In this document: positions 35,598 to 55,395 of the stretch, piece by piece
Numbering within the stretch: position 1 is the first letter of the stretch
How the letters are laid out: every line of letters begins with the position of its first letter
Source of the DNA: Lepidodermella squamata
Lineage: Eukaryota > Animalia > Gastrotricha
Direction: 5' to 3'
Assembly: GCA_047495785.1 (NCBI GenBank)
Contig: JBLDXI010000042.1
Span: forward strand, 2,170,001-2,234,000
Length of the DNA stretch: 64,000 nucleotides
Translations under genes and position numbers: made by a program
The notes under the pieces: generated by a model
Told to the model about the DNA's origin: nothing
The model's database searches: none
Seen by the model: the letters and a program-made list of their open reading frames with translations, nothing else

Positions 35598-36884
35598 ATG
35601 AATCAGTTTGGCAATTTTGGGTTGGGAAACATCCCGCCTAATAACTTGCAATTCCCGGCTAATAACACGCAGTTCCTGGCTAATAACATGCTATCATCTC
35701 AACAAGTGGACACGGCTCGACAGGTAAAAAATTTGCGAATGAGACAACTCCGAAGTTGAATAATGCATTTAAATGAGATGCATTATTCAACTTAAAATGA
35801 GAAGAATACTGCTAAAGCGAAAATTTTATTATGAACGCTCGTTACCGTTCATCGACCGCTACATGTGTAAAAATACTTTAATCTCATGCTGCGTCGATCA
35901 ACGGTACGGGCGATCGTATAATAAAATACCGCCACTCGTTATATCTCGCACCTAGCGCGCGCGCGTGTAATAAAGCTAATCCGGTATTAACGCTGTTCGA
36001 TACCGTTGCGGTCCTGATCAGCGCTCATAACGGGTTCAACAAAGCAGAAAGGCGCAAATAAAATCATCAACGATGCGCGCCGGCACATAATAACGCAGCT
36101 CGTTACAGTGTAACAGTGTACAAACGGGCGAATCGCTGATGATGACAAGTGCGAAATTATATAACGGCGCGCAAAAATAGCCGCAATAAATTTGACATAA
36201 AAAGTGCGCGCGCGCGCGCGCGATAAAAATAAGCGCAGCGCTGCCGAGCATCATCGGCATCATCGAATAACGCGCGCGCAATACCTCGCACGTTTGCGAA
36301 AATATAAAAAAAAATTCAAACTATGCAGTAATATTAATAAGGAGTGATGTAAATTTCAGGAAACTATTGAATGGGCGCCGTTCGACTCGTCGTTGTCTAC
36401 TAATGCTCGAGCTATGGATAAATTGGCCAGCTTCAAGTTTACGAATAATTACAAGGCTATTCGCTATGTGTGCACTGACAACAAATACGTGTTTTTTCTG
36501 GGGAAAATAAATTCGCCGGATCCGCACAGCCCGATGGTGCAGCCGGGTAAAGGTCTGTGGATGACAGAACTCGAGGTACGACAAATGCTGGCCGGCATCA
36601 AGGGCAATGCAAACTGGCTTCGAACTCTAAACTCAAGTCTTCAAGCTGCCGGAGCCAATCGAGAAAATCTCGGGGTTCAATCAGTCGAATCGTCCAATAA
36701 TCACATCATCAACAACCTCCGCTGGTCTTTTTACGCGCCAAAGAATATCTTGTTCATTGATTTGCGCAGGTATACGCCGCAGCCAGATAATAAGTATAGG
36801 GCGATGAAAGATGGCATCTCAATTCCGCAGTCAATTTTTTCGCAATTAGAGTCGATTTTATGCCAAGTTCTTGAAGGCATCTGA
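35598..36884 (+). CDS. PC4/Sub1-like ssDNA-binding protein (probably tandem PC4 fold)
   Basis: Exon 35598-35723 splices in frame to 36360. FIDLRRY...AMKDGISIPQSIFSQL resembles the PC4 IDIREY...KGISL pattern; a weaker first copy is PGKGLWMT. Confidence 0.7.
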
Positions 36885-37302
36885 GGATCTTAGTCATCCT
36901 TAATTGAGCTGCTGATTAATTCTAGCAATCATCAGCCGACTGCGAATAAAAATCGCAGGATTATATATCGCACTAATATTACTAAATTTAATCGAACCTA
37001 TTATCATGTTACTTCAATCAATTGAAACTATTATCTGGTTTATAGCGAATTTTAACTATTTATCCTCATTTACGAGACCACAGTTCGAGTCGTACGATGG
37101 GTCGAACTAGGATCTTGATATTATCGCTCTCATTTATCTATTAACCAAGCATTACCCCAATAAATCCAAAAAATCCCAAAATTAACGCAGTGTCTAAAAT
37201 TTTAGGAAATTAAATATTATTAGAAATTGAGCTACATCGCCCGACACAGGTAAGCGAATAAATTTTTCAACTAATAGATGCTCTAGAATTAAAGTAATAG
37301 CC

Positions 37303-40300
37303 ATGGATGAAGAGTTCAAACTACTGCGCTATGAAAAAGTTAGCGAACGCTTTGGCTTATCGACATATGAATTTTTAATCCAGGCCGGTGGTGGTGAATC
37401 TTCCGCCGAAACGGATTCTCTCCAGCAATATGAAAAAATTCAAAACTATTTTGAAAAAATAGTTGATCGGCTTCGATCAAAGTTTGACCCGGATAGCATG
37501 TGCCGGATATCTATTCACAACTCGGAGCTTTCGTATCCGATATCACTGGGCTATTATAGGCTAGCAATTTTATCAGGGGCTATCATAACCAATCATGTGG
37601 AACGAATCGCTCAGTCGAAGCGAGGATTAATTTTTTCATCCACTCCTTTCCGAGTAGAAGCAAACATGGTTTTTCTCGATAAAATGAGGGATGATGAATC
37701 CAAGTATTTAGGATCTGGCCCTGTTAGGCATCGAAAGAAACTCGAGACAAGCGCCTTGAAATGGCTATCAAATCTTAGTTCTTACATCCCTGTTGACAAC
37801 GCAGATAATCTGTGTTTATTTTACGCTGTGGTTTTGGGCATGAGCCACAGCAATTACATAGCATATGTAGCCGATAAAAACAAGAATTTACTTCGATATT
37901 TGGAATCTCCAGAATTGGAGCAAAAAGGACTAGAATATATGCATCTGAAAAATGACAAGGCTAGACTGCGAAAGATGGCTCGGGATCTGTGCCGAAAATC
38001 CGGCTACGACCCCGAATCTAATCGATCATACGGTGTAGCTGACCTTCCTAAAATAATGCAATTTTTTCCGGATCATCAAGTAATAGTTTATTCTCTATCA
38101 GACAATCGGGTCGTATACATGTGGCCTGATAGCAGTGCTTTTTCTGACAAAGATCCGATTCGAGTATACTTGATATGGATCCATCCCAAGTTGATGGCTC
38201 CAATGTACAGCAGGGTTGGGCATTACGGCGCTCTCAAGAATTTGAGTCAAGTAAGCCATGCGAAAACGTACTGTAAACTGTGCTTTGTACCTATATCAAG
38301 ATCAAATCATAATTGCCTATATCGATGTTACGCATGCCATCAGCGATTAAAACCAGCTTTAAGTTCGAATAATGGGATAGTGGATACTCCGAGATGCCTT
38401 AATAGGTGTTCCGATGAGTCAACAATTAGTTGTCAGAACTGCAATCGATTTTTTTTCGGAATTAATTGTCACAATTACCACATCAAAGCTAAGATATGTG
38501 ACAAATTTGTTCGATGCAAATCTTGCGGGCAAATTAAAACTCGAATTAGGATGGCTGAGCACAAATGCTCTGGTCGCAAGTGTGTGGTTTGCAAATCAAA
38601 GCTGGAACCTGGCCATCAATGCTATTGGACAAGGCCAAAGCTTAAGGAATCAGCTGCTCCGAATCGCGTATTATACTTTGACATCGAATGTATGCTCTTG
38701 GATTGTGGGGAATTTCATGCAAGCACCGTTATCGGCGAATTCGCATGCGATGCGTGTTCAGAGCGTGAAATACGCGAATATCCCGCGGACGGAGGTTCAA
38801 TCTGCGAAAATGAGTGCTCTCAGCTATTTTTCTATCACGAATCTGATGCATTCGCGAAATTCATGCGATATATATGCTGCGATCGGTATAAGGATCTGAC
38901 GTGCATTTCTCATTACGGCGGTAAGTGATTAGGCTCAAAAAACGTGAAAAATCTAGGCTGTAATTATTTTAGGCAAATTTGATACGATTTTTGTTCTGCG
39001 CTACGTTCAAGAACAGAATATTAAATTTGAGACTATAGAGAGGGCGGGAAGAATATTGGAGCTAAAAATAGATCGTGGACCCCGGTAAGAGTGCAAATTT
39101 GTAAAAAAAAATAGATTTCAAAAATTGGGAAAAAATAGATTTATTGATAGCTACAACTATTTTTTGACAAAATTGTCCTCTCTCCCGGCCGCTTTCGGCA
39201 TTGACGGCTTGGAAAAACTTAGCTATGCTCATAAACTGCATACCCGCGAAAATTTGTTCAAAGTTTTTCCCGAATGGCCTGGGCTTGAAAAGTACGATAT
39301 CAGCGGCATGTCTGAGAAAGAAATCGCCAGCTTGGAAGATTTCATCAGGCTGAAGAGGCAAAATCGCGAAAGTTACGATTTTAAATCGGAAACTTACCGG
39401 TATTGCCGACAAGATACCGTCATTCTACGAATAGCAACTGGCCGATTCAAGAAAATGATACAGGAATTATCAAAGTGTGATTACGCACCGAATGGTATCA
39501 ATTGCTTCAACTACCTAACACTGTCGTCCATCTCCCATATTATTTATCGAGTAGGTTAAGAAAAAAATGGAGTAATCTACCTTAAAAACATTTCTGGTCA
39601 CCCTAGATTAAGTACATGCTGCCAAATTCAATTCGAATATTCAATCCTCAAGGATTGGTGCTCAGAGACGTCGCAAGTCAAGAAGCTCTGCAATGGCTAT
39701 ATTATTACTCTAAAATTCATAATGTGGAGATTGAATCAGCTTTGAATGGCAGTGAAATTAGGCTGAAAATGTCTGATAAATCTGAGCTCAAAGCTGACGG
39801 GGTAATTCGCAACAAGTCAACAGGGATGGTTGAGCGGGTACTCGAATACTACGGTGAGCTCTGAACATCATTTTCTCAGATAGATTTACGCTTTCGGTTC
39901 TAGGCTGCACCGTTCACGGGCATCCTCGTTGCGTCCCTGAAAATAGGTACAACTTTTTGCTGCGAAAAACGTATGGGGAGCTTGCTTATCAAACGGCTAA
40001 ACGCGAAGAAAAGCTTCGCCAGCATAATTATCAAATCACCTCGATTTACTCTTGCGAGTTTAAGCAAATTCTCGCGAATGACCCAGAACTTGCTTCGACA
40101 TTGCGAGCTGCGGTTTCAATAGTACCGCCGATTAAACCACGGTCAGCGCTATTGGTAAGACTGCTGAAATTGCGATAAATATATCAATAGAAAATAATTT
40201 TAGGGTGGACGAACGGAGGTATTCAGGTGTTATTTTGCTAGAGATTCAGCGACGAGTCTTCAATATGTGGATATAAATTCCATGTATCCATACGTTCTGT

Positions 40301-41785
40301 GTAGCAAACAGTTTCCGTGCAATAACATCTCGGCACAAGTATTAAGGTGGCGATTGAACGACGAAAAACTGAGAGCAAAGTTTTTCGACGAAAATGACCC
40401 AGCATTTGGCCTAGTTTCAGCGAAGTGTTGTCCGAATCCCAGCCTAATCGTGCCATGTTTGCCTTATAAGTCCCCCGATGACGATCGCCTGGTTTTTATC
40501 AGTTGCAGAACATGCTATCTGGAGAAAAACGTGACGACTAGATGCAATCATGACATGGATCAGCGCGCAATTTCCGGAGTTTGGACCAGCGAGGAGCTTC
40601 GCATGGCTGTTGTACAATTCGGTTATAACTTGGTCGAGGTATACGAAATATGGCACTTTCCAGACCGTAGCAACTTGCAATTCAGAGAATTCATTCTCTC
40701 GCTTCAAAAATTGAAGCTTGAAAACACTGTTCTTGCTCCAACAGTTGACGTCGAGCAATACGTCACCGAATGTCGGGAAAGGTACGGAATCGAGCTCGAC
40801 CGGCAAACCATGCTGTCGCCGAATGCTTCGATGAAACAGATTTCCAAGATCCTTCAAAATAGGTAGGTCGATTAAACAATCTTGAAATTAACCCTAATTT
40901 ATCTCTCAGCTTCTACGGTCGCTTTTGCCTACGAGCAAATAATTCCGTGGTGAAATATTTGGACTCGCCAGAACAGTTGATCGAGCTTTTTGAAGCTCCA
41001 AGCAAGGTTATTCACACAATTCAGCCAGTAGGACCAGATGACGAGCACCAAAAAGTCCGCGTTTCATATTCAGACGCTCCAGAATATGAACAGCCATGCG
41101 CTACCAACTCTGAAATTACAGCCTCCTTTATAACTTCTTACGCAAGAATGAAACTTTACGAGGAGGTTCGCAATAATTGGACTAAACGAATTTCAAGCTA
41201 ATTACCTTTGATTTCAGATGGCCAAGCTGGGTTCCAGACTTGTATACTGCGACAGTAAGCAAATTCGCTACCTAAATTTCGTAGAATTTTGATAATCTTG
41301 TATTACGCAGCCGATTCGTTGATTTACACGCACCAAGAGGGTGAATACAAAATTCCAGAGAGTCCATTTCTGGGAGACTTCAAGTCTGAATTGAGCGAGG
41401 GAGAATTCATTGAGTCTTGGGTAGCGATTTCGCCAAAATCCTATTCATTTGTCTCCAACTTGAGGTATAGAATTAATTTTTAGACTTGTTTTTTTTTTAA
41501 TTAATTTCTTTTAGAACTGAACTCAAGTTTAAAGGAATAACCCAAAACTTGGCGGGGAAACGGTTGACTCACGAATCTCTAATTAAGCTGCTAACCGACT
41601 ACCTTAACAATTTTGCTGCTGAAAGTGCGATAACTGTCGATCAGACCGTATTTCGTAGGCGTCACGTTCCAGCATCCGTAACTCTTGAAAATATTGAGAA
41701 AACAGTATCCCCTCACCTTAATGACAAACGAATATTTGATCCTTTGTCATTCACCTCTATCCCTTACGGATATCTTCCTCATTAA
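37303..41785 (+). CDS. pPolB: Protein-primed family B DNA polymerase (TP/vOTU-like N-terminus, Cys-rich region, exonuclease, VSR-like insert); 9 introns
   Basis: After splicing: YFDIE, HYGGKFD, FIDSY, YCRQD, EYYGCTVHG, GGRTE, DINSMYP, KILQNSFYG, YCDTDS, KFKGI. Introns 38921-38972, 39085-39138, 39551-39606, 39854-39903, 40155-40203, 40863-40909, 41166-41217, 41255-41310, 41465-41514. Confidence 0.95.
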
Positions 41786-41829
41786 AATAATAATACGATT
41801 TGATCGCTTTCTCTCGTAGATTTTAGAAA

Positions 41830-42261
41830 ATGACAAAAAGTATCGCATCGGAGCGTTTAGCGCCTGAGAGCAAGGCCTTGTACGAATTTATCGAAGACGA
41901 GGTTACCTGCAGCATCTGCTTGGGAATAATGACTTCTCCCGTCTACCTAACAAGTTGTCATCACGTCTATTGCGAATCCTGCCTATGCCGATGGGGCGAG
42001 AGATGCCGCGGTTCTGATGCTCGATCTCTTATATTCAAAAGAGCGACTTGTCCCAAATGTCGAGAGTTTTACTCGCTGTTGGACATCAATCCTGGACCTG
42101 GTGTCGTCGAGCGGCTAGTTTCGCGCATGCTTTTCAGTTGCATTTATGAAAAGTATGGTTGCTCAGTGAAGCGTGACCATTGGGGCATCAGGGCTCATCA
42201 AAGGATCTGCAAGGAGAAAGGAGCTGCTAGTAAGCGCAAAGTTGCCCAACAGCTTGCATGA
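41830..42261 (+). CDS. C3HC4 RING finger protein with TRAF/SIAH-type zinc finger (putative E3 ligase)
   Basis: CSIC...CHHVYCESC...CPKC followed by CIYEKYGC...HQRIC. Confidence 0.9.
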   Translation: MTKSIASERLAPESKALYEFIEDEVTCSICLGIMTSPVYLTSCHHVYCESCLCRWGERCRGSDARSLIFKRATCPKCREFYSLLDINPGPGVVERLVSRMLFSCIYEKYGCSVKRDHWGIRAHQRICKEKGAASKRKVAQQLA

Positions 42262-42421
42262 AAAAAATGCTTGATAATTTAGCGTCAATAATCCAAAGTT
42301 GCTCAACAGTTTGCATGTAAATACATCTCGCATTAACTTCAATAATCCATTAAATTCCAAATATAATATATATTTTTTTAATAATTTTAGAAAATTAAAA
42401 ATTAAAAATTTCCGCCGAATC

Positions 42422-42798
42422 ATGGTGATCGCCAAGTCCTATGCTGCGTATATCAGAACCGACAAAGATCTCCTATTTTATACGCCCTTCAACGAACAAA
42501 GCACGACTGATGATATGGCCAAGAGAATGCGAGAATACTGGCCAGCGAACTGGGGCGAAAAGCCTGGGGACATCAAGTTTGAATGCAAAGGCCGATCAAT
42601 ACGGAAGACAGTTCGCCTGTCAAGTAAGCTTTCCGCCATGCCTGACTAAACTTGAAAGTTTACTCGCTAGGTTTGAGCCGCTTGGTTGGTGGTCGCATGT
42701 ACGTATTCTATGGGAAGGCGAAACTCGGGACAGCGACACCTGGAAAGGTGGACTGCCCCGCCTGCGAAAAAGGAGAGTGCATCATGTCAGAATTCTAG
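42422..42798 (+). CDS. UBL3/MUB-like ubiquitin-fold protein 1
   Basis: STTDDMAKRMREYWPANWGE; intron 42624-42670; ends CPACEKGECIMSEF. Confidence 0.75.
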
Positions 42799-42894
42799 GT
42801 GGTGAACGCAGTGACTTATCAATTATTCCCCTCTGTTTATTCACATTAAACAATGTATATAAAATTTTGATTAATCTTAGACGTTACTTTAATC

Positions 42895-43270
42895 ATGGGA
42901 TTCCGAGAACCCTCTTCATTCGAGTCGAGCCCTTCACCAGATGATGATCTCGAGATTGGCTATGCCGCAACGCTAATATGGCGGAATAAGGACCAAATAG
43001 TCATCCATTGCTGCAAGTCGTTTACTGTCGACGACATTATCTGGCAATTGTATCACGAGTGGCCCGAAAGTTGGGGCCTTAAACCGGCGTTGAGTAGCAT
43101 TTACCTGTATCACTGGGGAGTTCCGTTGAAGCGAGAAGCCCGCCCCATAAGTAAGTTGTGCCAAGATGACCTCAAGCCCGTTTCAATATATCTTTTCAGA
43201 ATATTGCGAGTACTATGGCCAAGGCGGTATAGAACTGAAGGTTAAAATCAGTGATGATGACGAGGAGTGA
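42895..43270 (+). CDS. UBL3/MUB-like ubiquitin-fold protein 2
   Basis: TVDDIIWQLYHEWPESWG...IYLYHWG; intron 43151-43199; ends IELKVKISDDDEE. Confidence 0.75.
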
Positions 43271-43660
43271 TTGATCGCATCTCTAGTAAATCGAGTCTCT
43301 AAGAAGGTTTTTTTTTCTTCTAAAAATTAGAGAAATTTAAAACAATATTCAGCGAACATGAGGCTGCGAATTCGAATTGCAGATGGCCTCGAGCCAACTT
43401 TTTGTATCAGAGACATGGGACATTACAAAGCAAGTAATTTTGCGCTAGTTGAAATTTGCATCTCTTAACTGCTTCTTGCAATAGGAGTTAACAATTCGAA
43501 ACTTTCCAGGCTATGCTCGCGTTTCCGTTGGCAACTCGGCGATAGTTAAGATGTATCGCCAATCTGAAACCGTCACCGTTATTTGCATCTATAAGAAGCA
43601 ATAAATCGCCTTAATTGATTTGTATTGTGGACATTTTAGATAAATTTGAGAATATATTTG

Positions 43661-44056
43661 ATGGAAACTCCCCGCCCTTCATCTTCGAGCAGCATCGAGT
43701 CGCACCACTCGGCTGACTCCATGCGGCCTTGTGCTCCACGCGAACGCACTGTTGTTCTACGATGGATAGATGGTAGTGAAATCGTCATGCCATTTAGCAA
43801 ATATTGCACGGTAGCCGATCTCATCTTCATGCTGTATGAAAAATGGCCGGCAGAATGGGGGGAAAGACCGCAGTACAGGAGACTTTTGCTGTGCGATAGT
43901 TACTGCCGAATTCCTAAATTCGCTCGAATGATGGGTAAGTTAATGTTTATTAAATTCCACCGTTAAATGACTGAATTTTATTAACCTTAACTTACAGAGC
44001 TCGACAGACGATCTGGAAGGACGTTCTTGTTATTCGTCAAGCTGACAGCATACTGA
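43661..44056 (+). CDS. UBL3/MUB-like ubiquitin-fold protein 3
   Basis: VVLRWIDGSEIVMPF...TVADLIFMLYEKWPAEWGE; intron 43935-43997; ends TFLLFVKLTAY. Confidence 0.75.
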
Positions 44057-44126
44057 CACGGATTAACTAACTAATAACTGTTTGCATGCATCAGCTAAAT
44101 TTAGGCAGCATTATTACATAGCGAAT

Positions 44127-44438
44127 ATGGATAGTTTGGATTCCCTCAGCTCATCTGACGATTCATGCGTAGCAGACGATTTCAGCGTCCTTTTAACATG
44201 GATGAATGGTGACGAACTCATAATGAGATGCCCTCGAACGGATTCTGTTGATGATTTGCTGTCAAGACTCTATGATGACTGGCCAGTGTATGGATGGGGA
44301 AGACGACCCGCGGATCCTGCCGTGTTAGCGCTGAGCAACGCCAGACAATGCTTACCAAGATCCCAACTGCTTATGAGGGATCACACTGGAGATGCTACGG
44401 GGCATGTCATCTTGAAGTTTTATGTACATTTGAAGTAA
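44127..44438 (+). CDS. UBL3/MUB-like ubiquitin-fold protein 4 (intronless)
   Basis: DSVDDLLSRLYDDWPVYGWG...DPAVLAL. Confidence 0.7.
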   Translation: MDSLDSLSSSDDSCVADDFSVLLTWMNGDELIMRCPRTDSVDDLLSRLYDDWPVYGWGRRPADPAVLALSNARQCLPRSQLLMRDHTGDATGHVILKFYVHLK

Positions 44439-44612
44439 TTCTCGCAATAGCTTGTATTATCGCCTCAGTATACCTTGTATATCAATCTATAACCTCATTA
44501 TAAATAGGAATGTAAACTGTTTTTTAGAGTGATTAGCTTTGTATGTAAAATTGATCCCAACGGCAAATTTAGGCGAGTAATTTAAGGCTTTATATAGCAT
44601 CAAAAGAGCAAA

Positions 44613-44837
44613 ATGGATTGGGGTAGCTCATCATCTGATGATTCAAGCATAGCCGACGATTTCTGCGTTCTTTTAATCTGGGAGAATGGCAACACACTAA
44701 CAACGAGGTGCCCTCGAACGGATTCTGTCGATGATTTACTGTCAAGACTGTACTCTCGGGGTGCGATCTTGGAGCTGCCGGGTTCTGGGGGACCGACTTT
44801 GCTTGCTGTATTTATTAAAAGGATTAGAACTAATTAA
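44613..44837 (+). CDS. Internally deleted duplicate of UBL-like protein 4
   Basis: Shares RCPRTDSVDDLLSRLY and flanking DNA with copy 4; the WPxxW segment is missing. Confidence 0.6.
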   Translation: MDWGSSSSDDSSIADDFCVLLIWENGNTLTTRCPRTDSVDDLLSRLYSRGAILELPGSGGPTLLAVFIKRIRTN

Positions 44838-45065
44838 CCTCATTAAATACGAATGTAAATTTTGTGATTTTTTAGAATGATTAACATGTCATGTAAAATT
44901 GATTTCAACTCCGCCATGCATCCGAATTTTGCGTGGGCGCTAGTTCGAGGTTCGAAGGTGGGACGCGATTTCAAGCCTCGGGTGACACTACATTGCCCTA
45001 TATATTTTCAGCCATTTGACCTTCTTCGAGCCACTAGCAGCAGCAGGTCCAGTGTGTCCCAGTCG

Positions 45066-45816
45066 ATGATGAAAGTGATGTGCATCTCTGACACTCATAA
45101 CGAAGACATCGTACCACTTGTTAGCAAGCTTCAGCGATCATCGCAAGCCGACATTTTGATCCATGCTGGAGATGCGACCACGTTCGGTAGTCTTGACGAA
45201 GTGAGAAATTTTGATTCTCAGCTTGCGAAATTGAGACCGCTGTTTCACCAAGTAATTGTAATCGCTGGAAACCACGATCGCTCCTTACAATACGACCGCA
45301 ATTTACTGCGCGATAATTGCACCTACTTGCAGGATAGCTCTGTAAAAGTGAATGGCTTTCTTTTCTACGGCGCTCCATGGTAATTTATAAGGCAATAATC
45401 ATCGGCTTTGACGTGTGTGCAAAACAGGACACCACTCAGCGAGAGCTGCCATTCTGCTTTTACGCTCAACAGAGGCAACGAACTCGGTGAAAAGTGGGCA
45501 TTGATACCCGCTGAGACGGACGTTTTGGTAACACATTGTCCACCGTTAGGTGCTCTGGATCAAACGTCAACAGGTGATCACCTGGGATGTCTCTCACTAG
45601 CTTATCATGTCTTGGGTCGGATTCAACCACAACTCCATGTTTTCGGCCATTGCCACTACAGTAAGATATATCAAAACAACACACGAATCATATTACATAT
45701 TTATTTCAGGTAACGGAGAAATGCAAAGTGAATATACGCACTTTGTGAATGCGAGCATTTGCGATGATAACAACAGGCTTCAATTCATGCCGAGGCTGGT
45801 CGATCTCTACCATTAG
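45066..45816 (+). CDS. MPPED1/2 (239FB)-like metallophosphoesterase; start may lie upstream (44877)
   Basis: CISDTH, HAGD, IAGNHD, VLVTHCPP, HVFGHCH, FVNASIC; introns 45380-45427 and 45661-45709. Confidence 0.9.
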
Positions 45817-46781
45817 TCGACCTTTGGAACCCACGATGACCAATTCCCGCCAGTCTGCTTGGCAATGTGCTCTTTATTCTGCTCACCCGCCGCCGCCTGC
45901 TCTTCCTTACTACGTAGCGAACGTGGTGATGCCGCTACCCGCGGATTAGTCGCGTTCAACGCTCCTGCTCTGACCATGTTTCGAATACGGTCTTGCATTC
46001 TCGGACTCAGATTAGCGTTCTTGTTAGTTGCCTTGTCGAGAAATTCTACCAACTCCCATGAATCTATCAATTGTCCTTCCGAGTTGACGTATTCGATTTT
46101 ATTTGCAGGCGAAATATAGACTGATTTTGGCTTTGAACTCCCGCGCAAGTGATTCAAAATTCGAGCTGCAGCAGATTGTTGTGTTTTACTCGGGAAATTT
46201 TCGAGGATCCTGCCGTCCGTCAAGTTTACAAGACTGATTTTATCTTTCGGCTTCGCCTTCTGATCAACTATGTCCTCATTGTCGTTTTGTTGCTCGTCTT
46301 GGCTAAACTGCTCTATTTTTGGCGAAGTAGTATTACCAATCACCCTGCGCTTGGGAGTGCCGTTGGGCGAAGTCCTGTATTTCTTCGCTAATTTTCGCAA
46401 GATTCCGGGCGTTGGTGCAGGGCTTTCGTCCTCCTGCTCTTCCGCCTCTTCATCTGCCTCCTGCTGCTGCTGCTCCTTTTCCTCGGCTTTACCTTCAAGG
46501 ATTTTCAATTCCTTTACGACTCGTTGAAACTCTCGAAACGCTGAGTTGAATTTGTACAGCTTTTCGCGGGCATCTTCGTCGCTGCCTTCAGATAACGATG
46601 TCAGCAGCTGAGTCGCGTTACGTTTAAGATGACCTTTTTGCGCAGGTTGAGAGGCTTCCTTTATCAACCGCTTGCTCTCTGCCTCGAGTGCTGATGGGGC
46701 TTCCGTTTTATTAGCTTCACTAGAAGATCCAAGCACAAGAGCGTAACGCTTCGCATGCAGACCAATGTCTGTCGATTTCAT
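45813..46781 (-). CDS. Polinton protein of unknown function, possibly virion-associated
   Basis: 322-aa ORF at the end of the structural gene block; C-terminal QTGGNW. Confidence 0.7.
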   Translation of the reverse strand: MKSTDIGLHAKRYALVLGSSSEANKTEAPSALEAESKRLIKEASQPAQKGHLKRNATQLLTSLSEGSDEDAREKLYKFNSAFREFQRVVKELKILEGKAEEKEQQQQEADEEAEEQEDESPAPTPGILRKLAKKYRTSPNGTPKRRVIGNTTSPKIEQFSQDEQQNDNEDIVDQKAKPKDKISLVNLTDGRILENFPSKTQQSAAARILNHLRGSSKPKSVYISPANKIEYVNSEGQLIDSWELVEFLDKATNKNANLSPRMQDRIRNMVRAGALNATNPRVAASPRSLRSKEEQAAAGEQNKEHIAKQTGGNWSSWVPKVD

Positions 46782-47197
46782 GGTTTTCGGGTTGCCTTAA
46801 CAATAGCTTCAACGATTGTAGGGAGTATGCCTATAACAATCCTGCAGATAAACTTCATAGTCGAATTTGAAAAACGCATACCTGCTGCAGCAGATAATAG
46901 CGGAACAACGAACGCAGCGCCGCCTTTTTGAACTATGAATGTTCGGTTACCACTGATTGTTCTGTCACTACTACTCAGTTTTTTGATAGATTTCCTAAAT
47001 TTACGCAGCTTTGGTGCCAAATTATCCGGAATCTGTAGATTTTTGTTGATAAGATTCAGGCAGATTTCACTGATAATTCTGATCACGGAATCAGGAGCTA
47101 TCGATAATAGCTGTCGTCTTCTGTCGGCTGTTTTTGCTTTATGAATTTCCCTTAAAAAGCCCAGTACTCGATCAGATTTATTCAATGGCTTACTCAT
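46778..47197 (-). CDS. Basic core protein with adenovirus pX-like QKGG-hydrophobic tail
   Basis: QKGGAAFVVPLLSAAAG|ILPTIVEAI; probable in-frame intron 46831-46881. Confidence 0.7.
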   Translation of the reverse strand: MSKPLNKSDRVLGFLREIHKAKTADRRRQLLSIAPDSVIRIISEICLNLINKNLQIPDNLAPKLRKFRKSIKKLSSSDRTISGNRTFIVQKGGAAFVVPLLSAAAGMRFSNSTMKFICRIVIGILPTIVEAIVKATRKP

Positions 47198-47262
47198 GCT
47201 TAATAGACATGCTACCAATAATTTAAGAAAAAAGTCCGTTTCATCTCATTTAAATATACATT

Positions 47263-47999
47263 TTATTTAGGAACATAAATGACACCAGGGTTACTTCCTA
47301 CCCCGGTTCTGTAACGCATATATTCAGGACAGTTAGGACTCAGATCTATTAACAAATAATTGTGACTGCCTTTGCTAGTTTCCATTTCAAAGCTCTCAAC
47401 TAAAAAGCGCCATCGCAACGGTTCCAGCTGCAGAGCAAGGTAGCGAAATGCTGTGAGGTCCGCTCGATGCCGAAAAATGAACAAGTATTTCGCATTTAGG
47501 GTCATTTCTTTGGAAACTTTTCCCTTACTGAATATGGCTTGTTGGGTGAAAAACACTGACAAGTTCATGTGATGAGAGTATCGATAGAATAACTGTAAAA
47601 TCTTGGGATCGTTTCGACCCGTATCATATAGATCATCTATGAGAAGTAAGGTGTGTTTGTCTTCACTATTCTCGAATTCTTCAAAATTGAGTTGTTCCAA
47701 TCCTTTCCGAAAGTCGATACTTACTCCACGAATCCTCTCAACTTCGTCTTTGATTTGCTGATGCATCTTAGTTTCGACGCCGTAAAACCATACGATTCTT
47801 TGCGGCGGCGGAGAGATGGACTCGAGATCGCACAGAATGCTCCGAATAAGCCATGTTTTACCTGAAAAGTACCTTCTAAATACTAACTATTCAACTTGCT
47901 ATATATCATACCTGCTCCGCTGGGACCTATTACAAGAGAGCAGAATGGAGCTTGCAGACTCAGCGAAAAGTCAGTCTCTGATGGCAAATTGCTTGACAT
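47263..47999 (-). CDS. A32/FtsK-like DNA packaging ATPase
   Basis: Walker A GPSGAGKT is restored by intron 47862-47911; Walker B LLLIDD; SHHMNLSVFFTQQ. Confidence 0.93.
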
Positions 48000-48535
48000 G
48001 ATTGGCGACCGTCACACGTGGATAATTTGTGCGCGGCCTTGCTTAGCTTAAATAGCTTTTTCACTTGGTCTACTACAAACTTGTCAGTCTCTGGCGGCAT
48101 CGGCAGCATCCGCGTAATGCTATTAATTGTTGCGCCCCGCGATAGCCAATGCAAACTCCAATATGCATAGTACCCACAAACAGCTGATGTATCCCCCTGA
48201 TATTTTCTCCCGTTAAAAGCATAGTAATCTGCCCCATTTATTTCCTTTAAAAACTGCTCAATATCTTGATTGTAGAAAAAACCCCGTTGGCCGTAGCTGT
48301 CAAATAGTGTTGCGGGTTCATTATTTTGTGGAACGTATATAGATAGCCAGTGGCGCCCAGGCTGGCCTGCAGCGTCCGTATTTACAATCAAGGCCATCGG
48401 CCGATCACTCAGTCTTCGATATTCAGCTAGGAAATCCCACGGAATTGTCTTTTTAACTGCAAGTTTACTTATTATCTTGTCACAGGCTAATAGGCAGTCA
48501 AGTTGGAGCGTGTTAAGTTGCTCTGCGGCATCCAT
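47960..48535 (-). CDS. Adenain-like cysteine protease
   Basis: GRHW, FDSYG, QGDTSAVCGYY (His-Asp-Cys triad). Confidence 0.93.
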   Translation of the reverse strand: MDAAEQLNTLQLDCLLACDKIISKLAVKKTIPWDFLAEYRRLSDRPMALIVNTDAAGQPGRHWLSIYVPQNNEPATLFDSYGQRGFFYNQDIEQFLKEINGADYYAFNGRKYQGDTSAVCGYYAYWSLHWLSRGATINSITRMLPMPPETDKFVVDQVKKLFKLSKAAHKLSTCDGRQSCQAICHQRLTFR

Positions 48536-48538
48536 TTG

Positions 48539-49828
48539 TTACGTAAAGTCGACCAAGACGTTCCTTGCAAAGTTTAGCTCAATGACTTGGTCAGTTTCAA
48601 AGTAGCAAAGCAATATAAGATTGTCCTCTAATGCCGATTTAAATAATAGGTCTATATTAAGGACCCCAGTTTTCACCAAACTATATGCACTTCGACTCGA
48701 ATCGGGTGAAAGGTCAAACCCGATGAACGAAAACCCATCTTTCGAATACTCGGATAGCGTGATACCATTGGTCTTGGCTGAATATGGGAACAGCGTCTCT
48801 CTTAGCGCGTTTAACGCTCGAGCCGATTTATTACTACCATCTCCGATATCAAGCGGACTGTTGGGTACATGCTCGCTGTCTATCATTACTGAGACGCGCT
48901 GCAACCCGGCGTTTTTGAAATCATATGGGCTGGTGCTAAAATCACCCTTAAAGTCCTTATCGCTCACAAAACACATCACTAATCGTCTTGGAATTTTCCC
49001 GATAAGAACATGTCCCAAATTATAATTTAGCGATCCCTTTTGCAAGTTCAATATCTTGATAAAAGATCTATTAACGCCGTATTTAGCAGTAGTTTTCGTT
49101 AGGGTTCGGTTTAACGCCAAAGTGAATTGCGGGGACACTCGGACACGACGTAATTTCAGCTTGGCATCGGTCACAGTCAACGTGAATTTCTCTTCATCTG
49201 TACTTGCCTTCATTAGCACAAATGCATCGGAAGCCCTAACAAACGTTAGCTTGAAAGGCGTTGCCGGTATCAGGAATTTCGGTTGGGAAAATAGTTCTAA
49301 ATGCGGCCGACCTATTAGCACCATTTCACCTTCCTTTGCCCACGCCAACCGCTTAACGTGACCTTTGCCTGCGACGTCGCTCACCTTGCTCGCTTCGTCG
49401 GCAAAGTAGCCTTGAAGTGCTAGGTAGCTATCCTTAACAGCATGGTCATAGCTTAGAAGTGTTGAAATGTAAGCTTTGTAGTTGTAAGTTGGAGCTGGTT
49501 CGCTTATTTGTGTGTTATTGATACTCATGTCTATCTGACTGAACATGCTATGTAATAGCAGGTTGACTGGTGCGCACGTGATCGCCGTTTTTGCCTTGGC
49601 CGGGTCCGTGTTTACGACTTTACAGGTAATTTCAACATACGATCGGCTCAGGTCTGTCCAGTCGTTGCTCGGTGGAACGTCAAAATCAATCCTTGACTGA
49701 TTAGCTATAGCTGAAACTGGTCCATATTCTGTAATGTAGTTACTCTCAATCTCTACTTGCGTAGGGTTCAGCGAAAAAACGTTGAGCTCAGCGCGAATAG
49801 CGTTTTCAGAAGATGGGTGTACGTACAT
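48539..49828 (-). CDS. Major capsid protein (double jelly-roll)
   Basis: HPSS..ELNVF..PTQ N-terminus, PVNLLLHSMFSQ, YNYKAYI, IPRRLV, FDLSPD; 429 aa. Confidence 0.92.
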   Translation of the reverse strand: MYVHPSSENAIRAELNVFSLNPTQVEIESNYITEYGPVSAIANQSRIDFDVPPSNDWTDLSRSYVEITCKVVNTDPAKAKTAITCAPVNLLLHSMFSQIDMSINNTQISEPAPTYNYKAYISTLLSYDHAVKDSYLALQGYFADEASKVSDVAGKGHVKRLAWAKEGEMVLIGRPHLELFSQPKFLIPATPFKLTFVRASDAFVLMKASTDEEKFTLTVTDAKLKLRRVRVSPQFTLALNRTLTKTTAKYGVNRSFIKILNLQKGSLNYNLGHVLIGKIPRRLVMCFVSDKDFKGDFSTSPYDFKNAGLQRVSVMIDSEHVPNSPLDIGDGSNKSARALNALRETLFPYSAKTNGITLSEYSKDGFSFIGFDLSPDSSRSAYSLVKTGVLNIDLLFKSALEDNLILLCYFETDQVIELNFARNVLVDFT

Positions 49829-49875
49829 GATTACTATTTACTATACATCTCATTCGACGCCTTTAAATACAGTTT

Positions 49876-50347
49876 TCAGAAGTAGACACGTTTCCCAGCC
49901 TTCTTTTTACCGACTGCTTTGCTTTTACGCTTAGCAATGACGCGGCGGCCCCGGCGGCGCCTGCGTCTTCCAGTCCCAATTTGCGATCCTACATTTGCAA
50001 TGACATCCTTGGCTACTCCCTTTAATCCTTCCACAGCTCTCCGCTTCAGTATCGTTTTCGGACTGGCGTCCTTATTTTCCAACAAATCGCTTGCGATATT
50101 AGCCGTCGTGTGACTCAGATTTCGGAATATTGGTCCCAGCAATGGAATAATATGATTACGAAAAAATCCGGCGGCTACACTTCCGAATCCGTTTCCTGTC
50201 TATAATAAACTATGCCTAATCAATCTAATATTTATCACTTGATGTTACCTGATAAGTAGGGAATACGAGTGATTGACCACGAAACGGTTCTATCCCGTAC
50301 CCACTTTGTTGCAACAAAAACGATTCATAAGCATCTGCTGAATGCAT
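49876..50347 (-). CDS. Core/membrane-active precursor with QxGxG sites and an Arg/Lys-rich tail
   Basis: QSGYG, Q|TGNG (intron 50200-50248), amphipathic FGSVAAGFFRNHIIPLL, QIGTGRRRRRR. Confidence 0.75.
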
Positions 50348-50353
50348 GCTTCT

Positions 50354-52043
50354 TTATTTAGCTATAGGTCTAATTTGCACAAGTATTACTGCTTTACCGC
50401 TAACAAATTTCACTGGCAAGCCAGAGTCTTTAAATATCTGAATCTCTATTACGGATAACACGCGGCGTTTAATCGGAACAAATATTGGCTTTTCAAACAT
50501 TATGGAGAAAAATCCGCCTCTTTCATTAGTTTTTTCTGTTGGTATCACTCGCAGAAGTGGGGTGCGCGTGTTTCCCACGTACACGTCATCAATTACATCA
50601 GCGTACAAAAACAAGAAGGGCATTCCATAGTCCAACTGAGGCGCGAATTTCGCTGTCATTTTCTCTTTGACATCATGATAAGTGTAGGTGTATTCTACTG
50701 TTGATATGACTTGCTGCTCTTTCGAGTCTGATTGCGGTTTAGCTGAAGCACTGATGCCGTTGTTGTTCGCAGGTACGTTCTCGTCAGGGACTTCGTCCGA
50801 GGCCGCGTTCTGAGCTTCGCTGCTGGAGCTCGTAGTGCTGGGCGCTGGTACGTTCTCATCAGGCTCGCTATTGTTCCCGGGGACGTCGTTCGAGGCTGCG
50901 TTCTGAGCTTCTGCGGGGTTGTTGGGTGTGACTTCGCCCTGAGCTTCGTTGTTGGAGATTGCGGGAGGATCGGTGTTGGAAGCAGGTACGTTCTCGTCAG
51001 GGACGTTGTCCGAGGCCGCGTTCTGAGCATCGCTGCTGGAGCTTGCGGGAGGCTCTTTCTTGGCTTCGACAGCGTTCTGAGCATCGCTGCTGGAGCTTGC
51101 GGGAGTCTCGCTGTTGTTCGCGGCTGCACTATTGCTCGGCTCTTCGGTTTCTTCCGCTACATCTTCATGCTGATCGATATCCACGTTGTCCTCGGCATTT
51201 TCCGCCTCGGATCCCCCCCATTCATCGTCTCCGAATTGAACCGGTTCATTGCGTTTCGCTATCTTACGAGGTGGTTGCTCTTCTGTTGGAGCCGATCGCC
51301 GGATCCTACTAGTCTTTGCTACCTCCTCCTGCATGAATAATTGACCAGTGACTTTAAGCTTGTTGTCATTTATTGATGACAATGCCATGCGATATGGTAT
51401 TTTCTGGCGGTTTCCTCGAATAACATATCCCAGCATGTGCATGAACGCTTCGGCTTTCTCCCTATGTTTCCGCTGGTTTTTCATGTTCTTTGCGCCGTAC
51501 TCGTTGAATGCTATGAAGGCTTCTGGGAATCCAAGGACTTGAGCTAATTCTTTCGGTATGAATATGCCCCAACGTCCTTGTTCCACCTTTACGGATACCC
51601 GATTTGCTATTTTCGTATAGTCAAATGATATAGCTTTGGTTATCGGCTTGATTTCTGTCACCATGTGCTCCAACAACTCCTCGATGCTAGAGTAGTAGAC
51701 GCCACCAACTTGGCACTCGTGCATTTGCAACGCGTCAAATGGATCCGCCAAGTTTACTTCAGTATTGTGCACCCAGTCACTGTCAAAGATATAATATTTT
51801 GTTGGTTCCAGTGATTCCCACGCTGCCGGTCCGTTAAATTCAACCAGCCCCATTTCCCATTGACCTACGTACGTACGCGTTCTCTTAACAGTTTGGTTTA
51901 TTTCTTTTTGAATACTTACCTACTGTACCTAGATCAATCTCATTAGCTAATTTCACGCGATACGAAGACGGCGTGTTATCAGGAAATAGATCATTCGATG
52001 CGTTCGACGGCAAATAGAGCAGAAATTCTTGCTGTGCGCTCAT
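50354..52043 (-). CDS. Minor capsid (penton) with a long acidic low-complexity insertion
   Basis: LYLPSNAS..FPDNT..GQWEMGLVE (intron 51865-51919); C-terminal YADVI..VGNTRTPLLRVI..PVKFVSG. Confidence 0.88.
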
Positions 52044-52306
52044 TTCGTATTATTAGCAATTGTCAAGGCTATGCAATTGATCAGTCGATCGTTCCAAGAT
52101 CGTGCGACTTCCACAGTGCAGTACGTGATAATTATTGCGAACAAGGATAATACGCCGATGCTCTTCTTCTTACTCTTAAGTGTCGCTGCTAATCTGCTAC
52201 TGACAGAGCTGCTATGTGGACTACTTGTCCTTTTAAATAAGCTTGAGTCTACTTGATCTTCCCCTGCAGATGGCATGCGACATGGCAGTGATGTTGTAGC
52301 ACGCAT
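52040..52306 (-). CDS. Small single-pass membrane protein
   Basis: KSKKK followed by SIGVLSLFAIIITYCTVEV. Packed between neighbouring genes, with an ATGA overlap. Confidence 0.6.
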   Translation of the reverse strand: MRATTSLPCRMPSAGEDQVDSSLFKRTSSPHSSSVSSRLAATLKSKKKSIGVLSLFAIIITYCTVEVARSWNDRLINCIALTIANNTK

Positions 52307-52384
52307 TTATCGGCGACGACGTCTGTGGTATCGTTTGCGTGCTGTGTGTCTTCGCTTTCGGATTGCTCGTCTAGGTCCTGGCAT
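52307..52384 (-). CDS. 25-aa protamine-like Arg-rich peptide
   Basis: MPGPRRAIRKRRHTARKRYHRRRRR; fills the gap between the integrase stop and the next ATG. Confidence 0.7.
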   Translation of the reverse strand: MPGPRRAIRKRRHTARKRYHRRRRR

Positions 52385-52385
52385 T

Positions 52386-53627
52386 TTATTTCCGCTTCCG
52401 CTTCGATTTTTGCGCCTTTAAATATTCATTTTCTACGGCTTTGATTTCTCCGATCGGTTCCCACGAGCTCTGCGATTTAGGAAACCCTACCCAACTGACC
52501 AGCACTCTAGTTGTTCCGTCCTTGAACTTTCTCTTTTCCTTACCAACTTCGGCTATCAGGTACTCTTCAGGAAGCTTGACCTTTTGAAGCTCGTAACTAT
52601 AAAAAACTCCGGCCAGCGGCTCTGTGTAGTCTCCCTTCTCCTTATTCCACTCATTGAGCTTATAAGTGTAGGGACCGAATTTGTCTGGCTTAATTATCCT
52701 CGAAATTTTAAAGTATTCGTCCGTGTATACAAAGTGGCGGGCTCGATCGAATACCCCCCTTTCAGCTGATATCCGAACTACATCTCCGACCTGGAATTTC
52801 GCCTTTGAATTTCTCTCTTTTTTATGTTCATCAACAGGACCGTATATATTTTCATAAGCTTGAAATTGCTTCAGGCTGTCCTCGTATATGTCCAGATTGA
52901 GGTCTTTGTCGCTTTCAATTTTCCTACCGGTTTCTTTGTCATTATACAGCTCCGCCGGTGTAAATTTCGTTGAAGAGTGAATGCTCTGATTATAGACTCG
53001 GACAATATCCTGCAAGTCATCTACGTATCTTCTATCATTCCGTGCTATCGCTAGTTTCGCAAGTCTCATGCGAAGCAATTTGTTGAACGACTCAATCTGA
53101 GGAACCTTCTTCTCTGAATTAGTTGCAAAATAATGTATTGATTCTGATTTCAGATATTGCTCTACATGCTTGTTGAAAAATTCTGATCCTCTGTCAAATA
53201 CGACAGCTGACGGTTTTTGCTTGGCATCTCTCAAGACTAATTTCAGTGCTCTTAACGTTTCTAGACCAGTCTTATTGAGCATCGGCTGCACCCAGGCGAA
53301 TCGGCTATATGTATCCTTTGCTGTCAACAAGTATTGAACGTTATCGTTCTCGCCTTTGACGTTTTTCACATCCAGCAAGTCCATGGCGAACATACTTCTT
53401 CTACTGAAACAAGCTACCTTACGCATTAGCCGATTCCGCGTTCCAACTTGCTTGTACACGCTCCATGCTCGCTGGTTCCCGAGCCACTCTCGCACTTCCT
53501 TGAAAGAAATCCTACGATTTGGATACTTGGCCTTATACGAGTTGTACAGCGATGATATACTGCCGAGACTCCCCTTCTCCGCTGGTGTAAAATATATTTT
53601 CCTGAGACCTTCATCCGTAGCCGACAT
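52386..53627 (-). CDS. Retroviral-like (rve) integrase with C-terminal chromodomain
   Basis: DDE in FAMDL / VFDRGSEF / IESFN; VSWVGFPKSQSSWEP. Confidence 0.95.
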   Translation of the reverse strand: MSATDEGLRKIYFTPAEKGSLGSISSLYNSYKAKYPNRRISFKEVREWLGNQRAWSVYKQVGTRNRLMRKVACFSRRSMFAMDLLDVKNVKGENDNVQYLLTAKDTYSRFAWVQPMLNKTGLETLRALKLVLRDAKQKPSAVVFDRGSEFFNKHVEQYLKSESIHYFATNSEKKVPQIESFNKLLRMRLAKLAIARNDRRYVDDLQDIVRVYNQSIHSSTKFTPAELYNDKETGRKIESDKDLNLDIYEDSLKQFQAYENIYGPVDEHKKERNSKAKFQVGDVVRISAERGVFDRARHFVYTDEYFKISRIIKPDKFGPYTYKLNEWNKEKGDYTEPLAGVFYSYELQKVKLPEEYLIAEVGKEKRKFKDGTTRVLVSWVGFPKSQSSWEPIGEIKAVENEYLKAQKSKRKRK

Positions 53628-53671
53628 TCTCGATCTATATTATTACATTTCCAAGCGTTTTAAATATAGGA

Positions 53672-54600
53672 ATGGAAAATTATTCATACATCCGATTAGT
53701 TGGATCTGGATCATTTGGAAGTGTAAGCTTACAGCGACACGTTAAACTTAACCGAATCTTTGCTGTGAAAATGATAAATACCACGCATCCTGTATTTCTT
53801 GAATCTGCACATCGCGAAGTCCAGTCTCTCCAATTGCTCAAAAATGCTCCGAACGTCGTTAAGTAATGATTACATAACAATCCGTTGCATTTAATGCTCA
53901 TTTTTCGCACAGATTACACGAGGTACTATATACGTCAAGACGGGCTTTTCTCGTCTTGGAATGCCATCTTATGGATTTGAGAAAGCTGATAGAACTCCTG
54001 TCTCGACCTTGGCCGCTCACACTACTCGAACGATGGTTCAGTCAGCTATTGTCCGCTCTGGATTACATCCATGAGAAAGGCATCATTCATCGCGATGTCT
54101 GCCCACAGGTTTGCTTTTCCCACGGATGCGTGTACCCAACTACCTTTCTTCTACAGAATGTTCTACTTCAATCCAGCTGGGTCGATGTTTCCCTCGGAGA
54201 TTTCGGCATCTCTCGATTAGTACCTGACCATGATACCTGCCCCAACATGACAGGGACTGTTACCGTTTTTCGCTATCGGGCGATTGAAATCATGTTCCCA
54301 AAACCTTACTACACTAACAAGATTGATATTTGGTCACTAGCTGCTACTATCATTGAGCTCGTCACTCTCACTCCTTTTTTTAACGCTCGAACCCCTGTAA
54401 CCATGTTAGCTGATATGAAATCTAAAACTTCTAGTCGCGATGTTTTCTTTAGGTCGTTAGAGACATTTGTGCATTGCGATTTTTCTGAATATCGTCATCT
54501 GCTAACTACGCTGTACTCGATGTTTGATAACGACCCGATCTACCGTCCAACTGCTAGCACCTGTTTATATCGCACTTCTCTTCGAACCTGGTATTATTGA
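53672..54600 (+). CDS. CDK-like (CMGC) Ser/Thr kinase
   Basis: MENY..GSGSFG, AVK, SAHREV, HRDVCPQN, DFG, YRAIE, DIWS; introns 53863-53912 and 54109-54156. Confidence 0.9.
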
Positions 54601-55236
54601 ATGCAAACTTTCGACATCAATGTTTCAGTTTCAAACGTTGTCGCTACTTTCCACGCTGGATGCACTATTGATTTAAAGCATCTGGCTAATCACGGAGTTA
54701 ACACATATCATGATAGCAGAAAAATCCCTGTTTCAACTAAGATTCGATTTCCCTCTGGTGCCACTGCAATGGTTTACAGCAGCGGTAATGTTATTGTCAT
54801 CGGCGGCAGGGGATCGCGAAATGTTCCAGAGTTCGAGTCTCAGGCGTTCCTAATCATGCTAAAGCTAAAAAAGTGGATGTCATCGTCTGAAATATCTTTC
54901 AATAATTTCAAGATACAAAATATTGTCATCACCGGACAGTTACCCTTCCGGTTTTCAAACATTTCATCGCTTTACTCTAGTCTCTCATCACTGCCAGGAC
55001 TACGAGTAGTTTACATACCAGAATCATTCTGCGCTATGCGAATCACTTTGAACAATAAGAAGATAAGCTTCTTCCCGAGTTCTCACAAGTTTAACATTCT
55101 CGGCGTTGATAGCATAGATCAAGGATTATCTATTATTCAGTCCTTTGCTCAGCTGTGTATCAACATCTACGAGAAGGATCTATCAGACCTTACCCTGACC
55201 AAAGAAGATCTGGATTTTCTATTTGGCAATATTTGA
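54601..55236 (+). CDS. Divergent TATA-binding protein (TBP/TRF2 family)
   Basis: Two TBP repeats: NVVATF..C.IDL..TAMVYSSGNVIVIG and FKIQNIV..YIPESF..ISFF. Confidence 0.9.
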   Translation: MQTFDINVSVSNVVATFHAGCTIDLKHLANHGVNTYHDSRKIPVSTKIRFPSGATAMVYSSGNVIVIGGRGSRNVPEFESQAFLIMLKLKKWMSSSEISFNNFKIQNIVITGQLPFRFSNISSLYSSLSSLPGLRVVYIPESFCAMRITLNNKKISFFPSSHKFNILGVDSIDQGLSIIQSFAQLCINIYEKDLSDLTLTKEDLDFLFGNI

Positions 55237-55290
55237 GTTGGTACAAATAAAAAATCGACCCTCCGCTGATCACCCGTGTTTTATTTTTCT

Positions 55291-55395
55291 AATGTTCCGA
55301 TTTTCAACCTAAATTTTCAAAAAGTACCGATTTTTCATTCACTTTTCATTCCCAACTAATTTACGCATTTTTTACTCGAACTAACTAATACTACT
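55291..55395 (-). repeat. Polinton right TIR
   Basis: Reverse complement of 32438-32543; ends in ACTACT. Confidence 0.95.

Follow-up and report, generated by a model that had tools for sequence, protein, structure and literature searches.

The DNA stretch analysed here (the window) comprises 64,000 nt of contig JBLDXI010000042.1 from the gastrotrich Lepidodermella squamata and harbours a virus-like element of the Maverick/Polinton type. Our preferred reading, to which we assign a probability of roughly 0.6, is that this is an apparently intact Maverick/Polinton whose polymerase gene (pPolB, for a DNA polymerase B of the protein-primed type), along with some dozen further genes, is interrupted by spliceosomal introns, which would have been gained singly in the nucleus of an animal host with small introns.

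Classification of the element

32438..55395, 22,958 bp, whole Maverick/Polinton-type element, delimited by its terminal inverted repeats (TIRs) and gene content
32438..32551, plus strand, left TIR, starts with AGTAGT, 114 bp, 94.7% identity to the right TIR
55283..55395, minus strand, right TIR, pairs with the left TIR

The interval 37303..54600, to which the initial annotation had assigned the element, covers only part of it. Several hallmarks of Mavericks/Polintons were found: the TIRs (114 bp, 94.7%), a pPolB (PF03175), a retroviral-type integrase (PF00665, E=9e-8) with an additional chromodomain, a double-jelly-roll major capsid protein (MCP) recognised by predicted structure and Foldseek, and a packaging ATPase (A32/FtsK). 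The latter gave no direct Pfam match; its Walker A motif is read across an intron junction, and it was assigned with an Atlas score of 0.95-0.96, PF04665 being found on 24-55% of the members in the matched clusters. A putative adenain-like protease and a putative minor capsid protein, labelled as such from their motifs, resemble genes in the same module of an unannotated viral contig (L002). The plus-strand module consists of a PC4-like gene, pPolB, a RING-finger gene, five small paralogues and a metallophosphoesterase, and the minus-strand module of core-type proteins, the ATPase, the protease, the major and minor capsid proteins and the integrase. At the right end, the element carries a kinase and a TBP-like gene.

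By gene content the element is a Maverick/Polinton. We do not file it as an intact insertion, and two properties of "intact" elements as described in PMC8097293, a 6-bp target-site duplication and intronless core open reading frames (ORFs), are lacking: no 6-bp duplication was found at the TIR edges (TACAAA at the left, CCCGCA at the right).

Nine predicted introns in the polymerase gene

37303..41785, plus strand, pPolB, protein-primed DNA polymerase B, ten exons, 1338 codons; PF03175
38921..38972, plus strand, predicted intron 1, 52 nt, phase 1, within the ExoII motif
39085..39138, plus strand, predicted intron 2, 54 nt, phase 2, directly 5' of FIDS, donor position less certain
39551..39606, plus strand, predicted intron 3, 56 nt, phase 0, at a site of moderate conservation
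39854..39903, plus strand, predicted intron 4, 50 nt, phase 1, within an E-x-x-G-C-x-x-H-G motif, which we take to be a VSR-like insert
40155..40203, plus strand, predicted intron 5, 49 nt, phase 0, directly 5' of GGRTE
40863..40909, plus strand, predicted intron 6, 47 nt, phase 2, within Pol motif B
41166..41217, plus strand, predicted intron 7, 52 nt, phase 0, at a variable site
41255..41310, plus strand, predicted intron 8, 56 nt, phase 1, within Pol motif C
41465..41514, plus strand, predicted intron 9, 50 nt, phase 2, in a variable loop
37250..37300, plus strand, predicted 5' leader intron, 51 nt, GTAAGC...TAATAG, ends two bases 5' of the ATG, predicted from its splice signals

The motif names used here and below (ExoII, Pol B, Pol C, Walker A, kinase loop) are those which we assume to apply. 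All nine spacers within pPolB have GT-AG ends, are 47-56 nt long and have an AT content of 60-86%, compared to 57% in the exons. Their removal (with X placed at each junction) yields 1338 codons with zero internal stops, while each of them adds a stop when retained (9/9). Homologues can be aligned to the product over its full length, the best match reaching 358 bits over 1336 columns at approximately 25% identity. We collected 151 homologues, of which the 66 with at least 900 amino acids (aa) were used and the 85 shorter ones were excluded from the conservation profile; the named relatives come from a beetle and fishes. At seven of the nine junctions most covering homologues show zero net offset (61/63, 48/63, 59/65, 54/65, 63/64, 35/59 and 51/57). 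Junctions 2 and 9 are located in gappy loops, with zero offset in 10/63 and 2/52 homologues and an offset of at most 2 aa in 58/63 and 32/52, respectively.

Splice site matrices were trained on 12 other short introns of the element and six host introns. With these matrices, eight of the pPolB donors outscore 92% of 170 exonic GT sites (the remaining donor stands at 79%) and all nine acceptors outscore 85% of 212 exonic AG sites. The last exon base is a G at seven of the nine junctions. Thus, GT-AG ends, donor and acceptor consensus and register with the reading frame, as expected of U2-type introns, are present at the DNA level, and the nine spacers are likely to be spliceosomal introns. The stop-free read-through and the register with homologues bear out the nine predicted pPolB introns of the initial annotation, and its view that activity depends on splicing is also supported at the level of the predicted product, which any retained spacer would truncate. 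A hidden in-frame insertion of more than 9 aa relative to the homologues was not found in pPolB. The two candidates that scored best as hidden in-frame introns were rejected, since homologues have coding residues there (occupancy 0.94 and 0.97); few homologues reach into the extreme N-terminus.

In the interval 37303-54600, eleven further short introns were predicted besides those of pPolB, giving a count of 20 (47-63 nt; 19 GT-AG and one possible GC-AG); three more outside this interval bring the whole element to 23. The earlier estimate had been about 22. The eight junctions named at that time (HYG/GKFD, EYY/GC, L/GGRTE, QN/SFYG, YCD/TDS, GPSGA/GKT, Q/TGNG and HRDVCPQ/N, the slash marking the junction) are all present. 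Approximately five of them interrupt what we take to be catalytic or nucleotide-binding motifs; Q/TGNG, which had also been counted as a key motif, is located in a small core-type protein. Across their junctions 14 genes can be read through with zero stops. In line with the first description, the genes for MCP, integrase, protease and TBP (together 3,744 nt) are single intronless ORFs. A branch-point-like motif is weakly represented among the short introns (10/21 versus 5.9 expected, p=0.043).

Short-read contigs of run X1, which possibly stems from the same sample as the window, are identical to the window over 34618-38942, 38968-46822 and 46876-50379 (15.7 kb in total, 0 differences). Since these contigs carry the same letters, the spacers are not errors of long reads or of the assembly. 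The contigs of the main family break at 38942-38968 and 46822-46876, each break overlapping a predicted intron.

Origin of the introns

The relatives are uninterrupted at the corresponding places, as the 66 long homologues show for pPolB, a metagenomic contig (L001) for the positions of introns 5-9, and L002 for the ATPase and the minor capsid gene. For this reason the introns appear to have been gained in core viral genes, as had been claimed previously, and apparently one by one. The 21 short introns are mutually dissimilar (best pair p=0.11) and do not copy their own flanks (1/21 at p<0.05). Repeats at their boundaries are 0-4 nt long in 19/21, and two introns have 6-nt repeats. Similarity to other DNA of the window was not detected beyond matches of 13-18 nt.

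Mavericks replicate by protein-primed DNA synthesis, insert themselves by means of their own integrase and are not known to encode an RNA polymerase. Since no RNA polymerase gene is present in the element, host RNA polymerase II would transcribe it, and the spliceosome would have to remove all nine introns of pPolB before any polymerase could be made. Copying from DNA to DNA without reverse transcription would pass gained introns on to each new copy. Judging by the stop-free exons and by hints of near-identical copies, it is likely that the element has been replicating in its intron-bearing form. These hints, which suggest several near-identical copies, come from the contig depth (161-218 in the element versus approximately 25-27 in the flank, depth being no copy number) and from a single variant within pPolB intron 1 (depth 131:68).

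Run X1 also contains a 13,221-nt contig which matches the element in short collinear pieces, in the order pPolB, phosphoesterase, ATPase and MCP. It stems from a second Maverick family in X1, which is diverged and collinear. Searches for closely related elements together with their surrounding DNA found none: the MCP search of viral contigs yielded 0/4 candidate stretches and the MCP alignment 1/81 (L002), while the search of metagenomes with a pPolB exon yielded 1/77 (L001) and the pPolB alignment no usable pattern.

Placement of the pPolB introns relative to conserved sites

An enrichment at conserved columns, which the initial annotation had proposed to test on a pPolB alignment, was found. 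Mean conservation around the nine junctions is 0.49-0.52, compared to 0.37 in the catalytic part; relative to introns placed uniformly over this part, p is 0.0014-0.028 (two profiles, three window sizes). When the null was matched for flanking bases, or for bases and phase, p was 0.0003-0.040 in this part, and all 18 matched-null tests on nine introns gave p of at most 0.04. An entropy score gave 0.0017-0.028. Windows in the top decile of conservation hold 5/9 pPolB introns (p=0.0009). The sole ATPase intron, which is located within Walker A, points the same way.

Several points weigh against a true preference. Four of the nine pPolB introns are outside the top decile, two of them at clearly variable sites. 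Dropping introns 5 and 6, which flank the exon used as query to collect the homologues, raises p to 0.03-0.21, and two hypothetical unseen introns at variable sites would lift it to 0.027-0.13. The test has n=9, its hypothesis was drawn from the same data, and a survey reported no preference of spliceosomal introns for conserved sites (PMC2814812). Thus, the excess at conserved columns, which according to the initial annotation would stand or fall with protosplice context, appears to survive matching for protosplice context and phase, but it is fragile.

To explain such an excess we favour survivorship. Variable loops would tolerate an insertion as extra residues or its sloppy deletion, while an insertion in a motif would be tolerated only if it is spliced exactly or lost exactly, so that introns would accumulate at motifs. 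This logic was published for inteins and group I introns (PMC2814812). As a cause of the motif placement observed here survivorship has less support, the homologues with approximately 25% identity permitting no ordering of gains and losses.

TATTTAA boxes and the TBP-like protein

47249, 48638, 49862, 50429, 52232, 52417 and 53659, minus strand, seven TATTTAAA boxes (range 47249..53666), each lying upstream of one of the virion/integrase module's genes
48047, minus strand, one TATTTAAG box, 55 nt before the ATPase start (-55)

Among the 8-mers of the strand that encodes the virion/integrase module, TATTTAAA ranks first, with 7 occurrences versus 0.25-0.28 expected; it was found 0 times on the opposite strand of this module and in the plus-strand module. 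Six boxes are located 39-110 nt and one approximately 196 nt 5' of the start codon, and four of the TATTTAA boxes lie within the coding sequence of the upstream gene. In L002, TATATAA or TATAAAA precedes 3/8 of the genes checked and TATTTAA one. In cytomegalovirus, TATTTAA marks strong late promoters which are read by a viral TBP mimic (PMC8360532). A shared non-canonical box upstream of structural genes, as in herpesviruses, is thus present in the element, and TATTTAAA is likely a late promoter for the element's TBP-like protein. The TATT/TATTWAA late promoters of beta- and gamma-herpesviruses (PMC8360532) resemble the situation described here in the position of TATTTAA before structural genes and in the virus-encoded protein with TBP fold. 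They differ in that here a small stand-alone TBP-like gene, whose product would bind the box, is present in a 23-kb integrating element. Other late-factor genes were not recognised in the element. Together, TATTTAAA and the element's TBP provide a directly testable handle on whether Mavericks go through a late phase in which virions are made.

Intron density is 0.53/kb in the TATTTAA module and 1.88/kb in the plus-strand replication and cargo genes (p=0.011, post hoc). Expression of early genes under the host programme and of late genes under the element's TBP would fit this difference, which without pPolB drops to p=0.057 and so counts less in favour of our view. Across the 22 genes overall, no significant difference in intron density was found (p=0.54), and pPolB holds 9/22 introns (p=0.04).

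A more far-reaching scenario combines these observations: a lineage of animal Mavericks turned into a splicing-dependent nuclear virus, with intron-rich early genes expressed via the host, introns at motifs persisting as inteins do, and intron-poor virion genes expressed via its own TBP at TATTTAAA. We consider it tentative and more likely to fail than to hold. If true, this would be a clear example of conserved sites being favoured by spliceosomal introns, and ORF-based surveys would have overlooked or dismissed an entire class of active elements.

Alternative explanations

Our preferred reading has to be weighed against the fact that every intron is predicted from DNA, against homologues so distant (approximately 25% identity over the full length) that the order of gains and losses cannot be read from them, and against the possibility that this copy is rearranged or misjoined, or that its flanks come from different insertions, as may be the case because the target-site duplication is absent and the flanks are discontinuous. 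The missing duplication would also fit the idea that the spacers result from faulty assembly or from the decay of a copy no longer alive. We regard this as extremely improbable, since the letters are identical in short-read contigs, the GT-AG ends are in register with homologues and the exons contain neither stops nor frameshifts. The introns could instead be real and their placement due to chance and protosplice preference, as in ordinary intron gain. The small n, the weakening of the test without two introns, the prevalence of G as last exon base and the general survey without bias for spliceosomal introns (PMC2814812) speak for this explanation, which deserves serious consideration and is nevertheless rather unlikely in view of the 18/18 matched-null tests with nine introns and of the single ATPase intron inside Walker A. 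Insertion of an introner transposon family after integration is in turn suggested by the introners known in dinoflagellate Polinton-like elements (PMC12166617) and by the two introns with 6-nt boundary repeats. However, the 21 introns resemble neither each other nor other window DNA, and boundary repeats are short in the other 19, which makes such an origin very improbable. There may have been an old, decayed introner burst; an introner or tandem-duplication origin finds no support within the window, the introns being dissimilar and without flank copies.

Two further explanations concern the benefit of introns rather than their source. They could be an adaptation that hides transcripts from surveillance of intronless RNA, as the initial annotation suggested, or boosts expression. 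By analogy, introns curb small-RNA silencing in C. elegans (PMC5554785) and shield from HUSH in vertebrates (PMC7619638), and the intron-rich genes are those likely expressed first from an integrated copy. This explanation seems unlikely to us, because four genes (MCP, integrase, protease and TBP) have no introns, pPolB starts with a coding exon of 1,618 nt, the genes as a whole show no significant difference in intron density, and placement at motifs is not predicted by it. Alternatively, splicing could act as a switch, with retention or skipping preventing the production of active pPolB and ATPase until the cell enters a particular state and introns in motifs making the off state absolute. 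The truncation of pPolB by any retained intron would suit such a switch, but the splice sites are strong and ordinary, and a stop-bearing intron kills the protein at any place, so the position in a motif adds nothing; we therefore consider it improbable. On balance we favour the single gain of spliceosomal introns by an apparently intact element.

Relation to known systems

Vertebrate Mavericks (Barreat & Katzourakis 2021, PMC8097293) share with the element the TIRs and, arranged in two modules, the genes for pPolB, integrase, ATPase, protease and both capsid proteins (major and minor). The core ORFs of intact Mavericks were described as intronless (PMC8097293, bioRxiv 10.1101/2022.07.12.499685), and large surveys call Maverick genes without introns (PMC10120064, PMC9356565, bioRxiv 2025.04.19.649669). 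Because surveys assume intronless genes, they would overlook elements of this kind or class them as degraded. Self-splicing introns or none are mentioned in PMC10748475, PMC12220804, PMC8502044 and PMC11296320. Nematode Mavericks (bioRxiv 10.1101/2022.07.12.499685; Jeong et al. 2023, PMC10748475) have the same core genes and host-like, intron-bearing cargo including kinases; there introns are found in cargo only, whereas here they are also predicted in pPolB, the ATPase, the minor capsid gene and core-type genes.

The nearest published case are the dinoflagellate Polinton-like elements with introners (Gozashti & Corbett-Detig 2025, PMC12166617), which likewise contain intron-type sequences, some of them in coding regions. 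Those introners are copies of mobile families and mostly lie outside of coding sequence, in contrast to the 21 short, unrelated introns in intact core genes described here. What the present case adds is a single polymerase gene with nine introns, together with a motif bias that is quantified but fragile. Swithers et al. 2009 (PMC2814812) described inteins and group I introns as enriched at conserved motifs and explained this by the need for precise removal; the introns of the element are of the spliceosomal type, approximately 50 nt long and without homing endonuclease, and belong to a class reported to lack such a preference, so that the motif excess runs counter to this survey. We found no published spliceosomal introns in an animal Maverick polymerase, although Repbase and the supplements of papers, which were not covered, may describe spliced Polinton genes. 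With an ancestral state of zero introns, the element would be a clean system for studying where new spliceosomal introns arise and persist.

Other genes of the element

32828..34279, minus strand, acidic low-complexity gene, predicted intron 34057-34116 (open frame across the junction)
35598..36884, plus strand, PC4-like gene, predicted 636-nt intron 35724-36359; PF02229 E=3e-4, under the curated cut-off; first exon tentative
41830..42261, plus strand, RING-finger gene, intronless; PF13445/PF00097
42422..44837, plus strand, five small paralogous genes plus a small ORF unrelated to them, with predicted introns 43151-43199, 43430-43484 (GC-AG, tentative) and 43935-43997
44877..45816, plus strand, metallophosphoesterase, predicted introns 45380-45427 and 45661-45709; PF00149, open frame
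45813..46781, minus strand, basic/acidic 322-codon ORF, intronless, unnamed
46778..47197, minus strand, small basic core-type protein, predicted intron 46831-46881; aligns across the junction to the L002 gene at the same position
47263..47999, minus strand, A32-type packaging ATPase, predicted intron 47862-47911 within Walker A; PF04665 via Atlas; gap-free junction relative to the L002 ATPase
47960..48535, minus strand, protease, presumably adenain-like from its H/D/Q/C motif, intronless; 30% identity to an L002 gene, E=4e-18
48539..49828, minus strand, double-jelly-roll MCP, intronless; structure model with pLDDT 85.9
49876..50347, minus strand, small core-type protein, predicted intron 50200-50248
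50354..52043, minus strand, predicted minor capsid (penton) gene, which we take to be such from its position and motif, predicted intron 51865-51919; similar to an L002 gene at both ends
52386..53627, minus strand, retroviral-type integrase with chromodomain, intronless; PF00665, PF00385
53672..54600, plus strand, Ser/Thr kinase (CMGC-like), predicted introns 53863-53912 and 54109-54156 (the latter in the HRD loop); PF00069 pieces collinear
54601..55236, plus strand, TBP-like gene, intronless; PF00352 E=5.5e-14; TBP in PDB E=3e-10

Compared to the intronless contig L002, the predicted introns in the genes for the ATPase and the minor capsid protein keep the register, and those of the two core-type genes do so weakly. 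Outside these genes, pPolB and the kinase, introns were predicted from frame and splice signals. Introns 46831-46881 and 54109-54156 are in-frame and stopless. The 636-nt spacer would link a 42-codon exon to the PC4-like gene, as suggested by frame continuity; it contains palindromic CG-rich tracts. The MCP model matches double-jelly-roll capsids from mavirus (best Foldseek E=5e-15), iridovirus and PBCV-1, and the best PDB matches of the kinase are to ERK2.

The five small paralogues adjoin the RING gene and have Ser-rich N-termini, and two of them show weak ubiquitin/SUMO-like matches. Two share a similar intron place near the 3' end, and three are intronless. A 26-codon Arg-rich, protamine-like ORF (52306-52384, minus strand) has its own TATTTAAA box and is likely a DNA-condensing core peptide. 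Acceptor-like sites precede some start codons in the element and might reflect trans-splicing or operons.

Flanks and host surroundings

The left flank (32322-32437) corresponds to a truncated exon, the first one in the sixth member of a host gene family arrayed in tandem, and the right flank (55396 onward) does not carry on the host gene interrupted at the left. An inverted match of 92 bp with 80% identity connects 34846-34937 inside the element with 56352-56441 in the right flank. Because many contigs stack there, it is likely a host repeat inserted into the element.

The introns of the element had been described as having lengths like those of the host. This agrees with six host introns chosen by eye, which are 49-60 nt long, and does not extend to another host intron of approximately 490 nt. 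Five tandem copies of the host gene family, whose product has a Ser/Thr-rich stalk and is predicted to be secreted or membrane-bound, are present at 8980-30732 of the window and are 3.5-5.9 kb apart, with inverted repeats resembling miniature inverted-repeat transposable elements and retroelement fragments between them. At 60690-63200, the window contains a host trypsin-like protease gene with Sushi-like repeats, of which one exon gave matches at 28-34%, mostly to arthropods, and whose introns are 54-60 nt long except for the one of approximately 490 nt.

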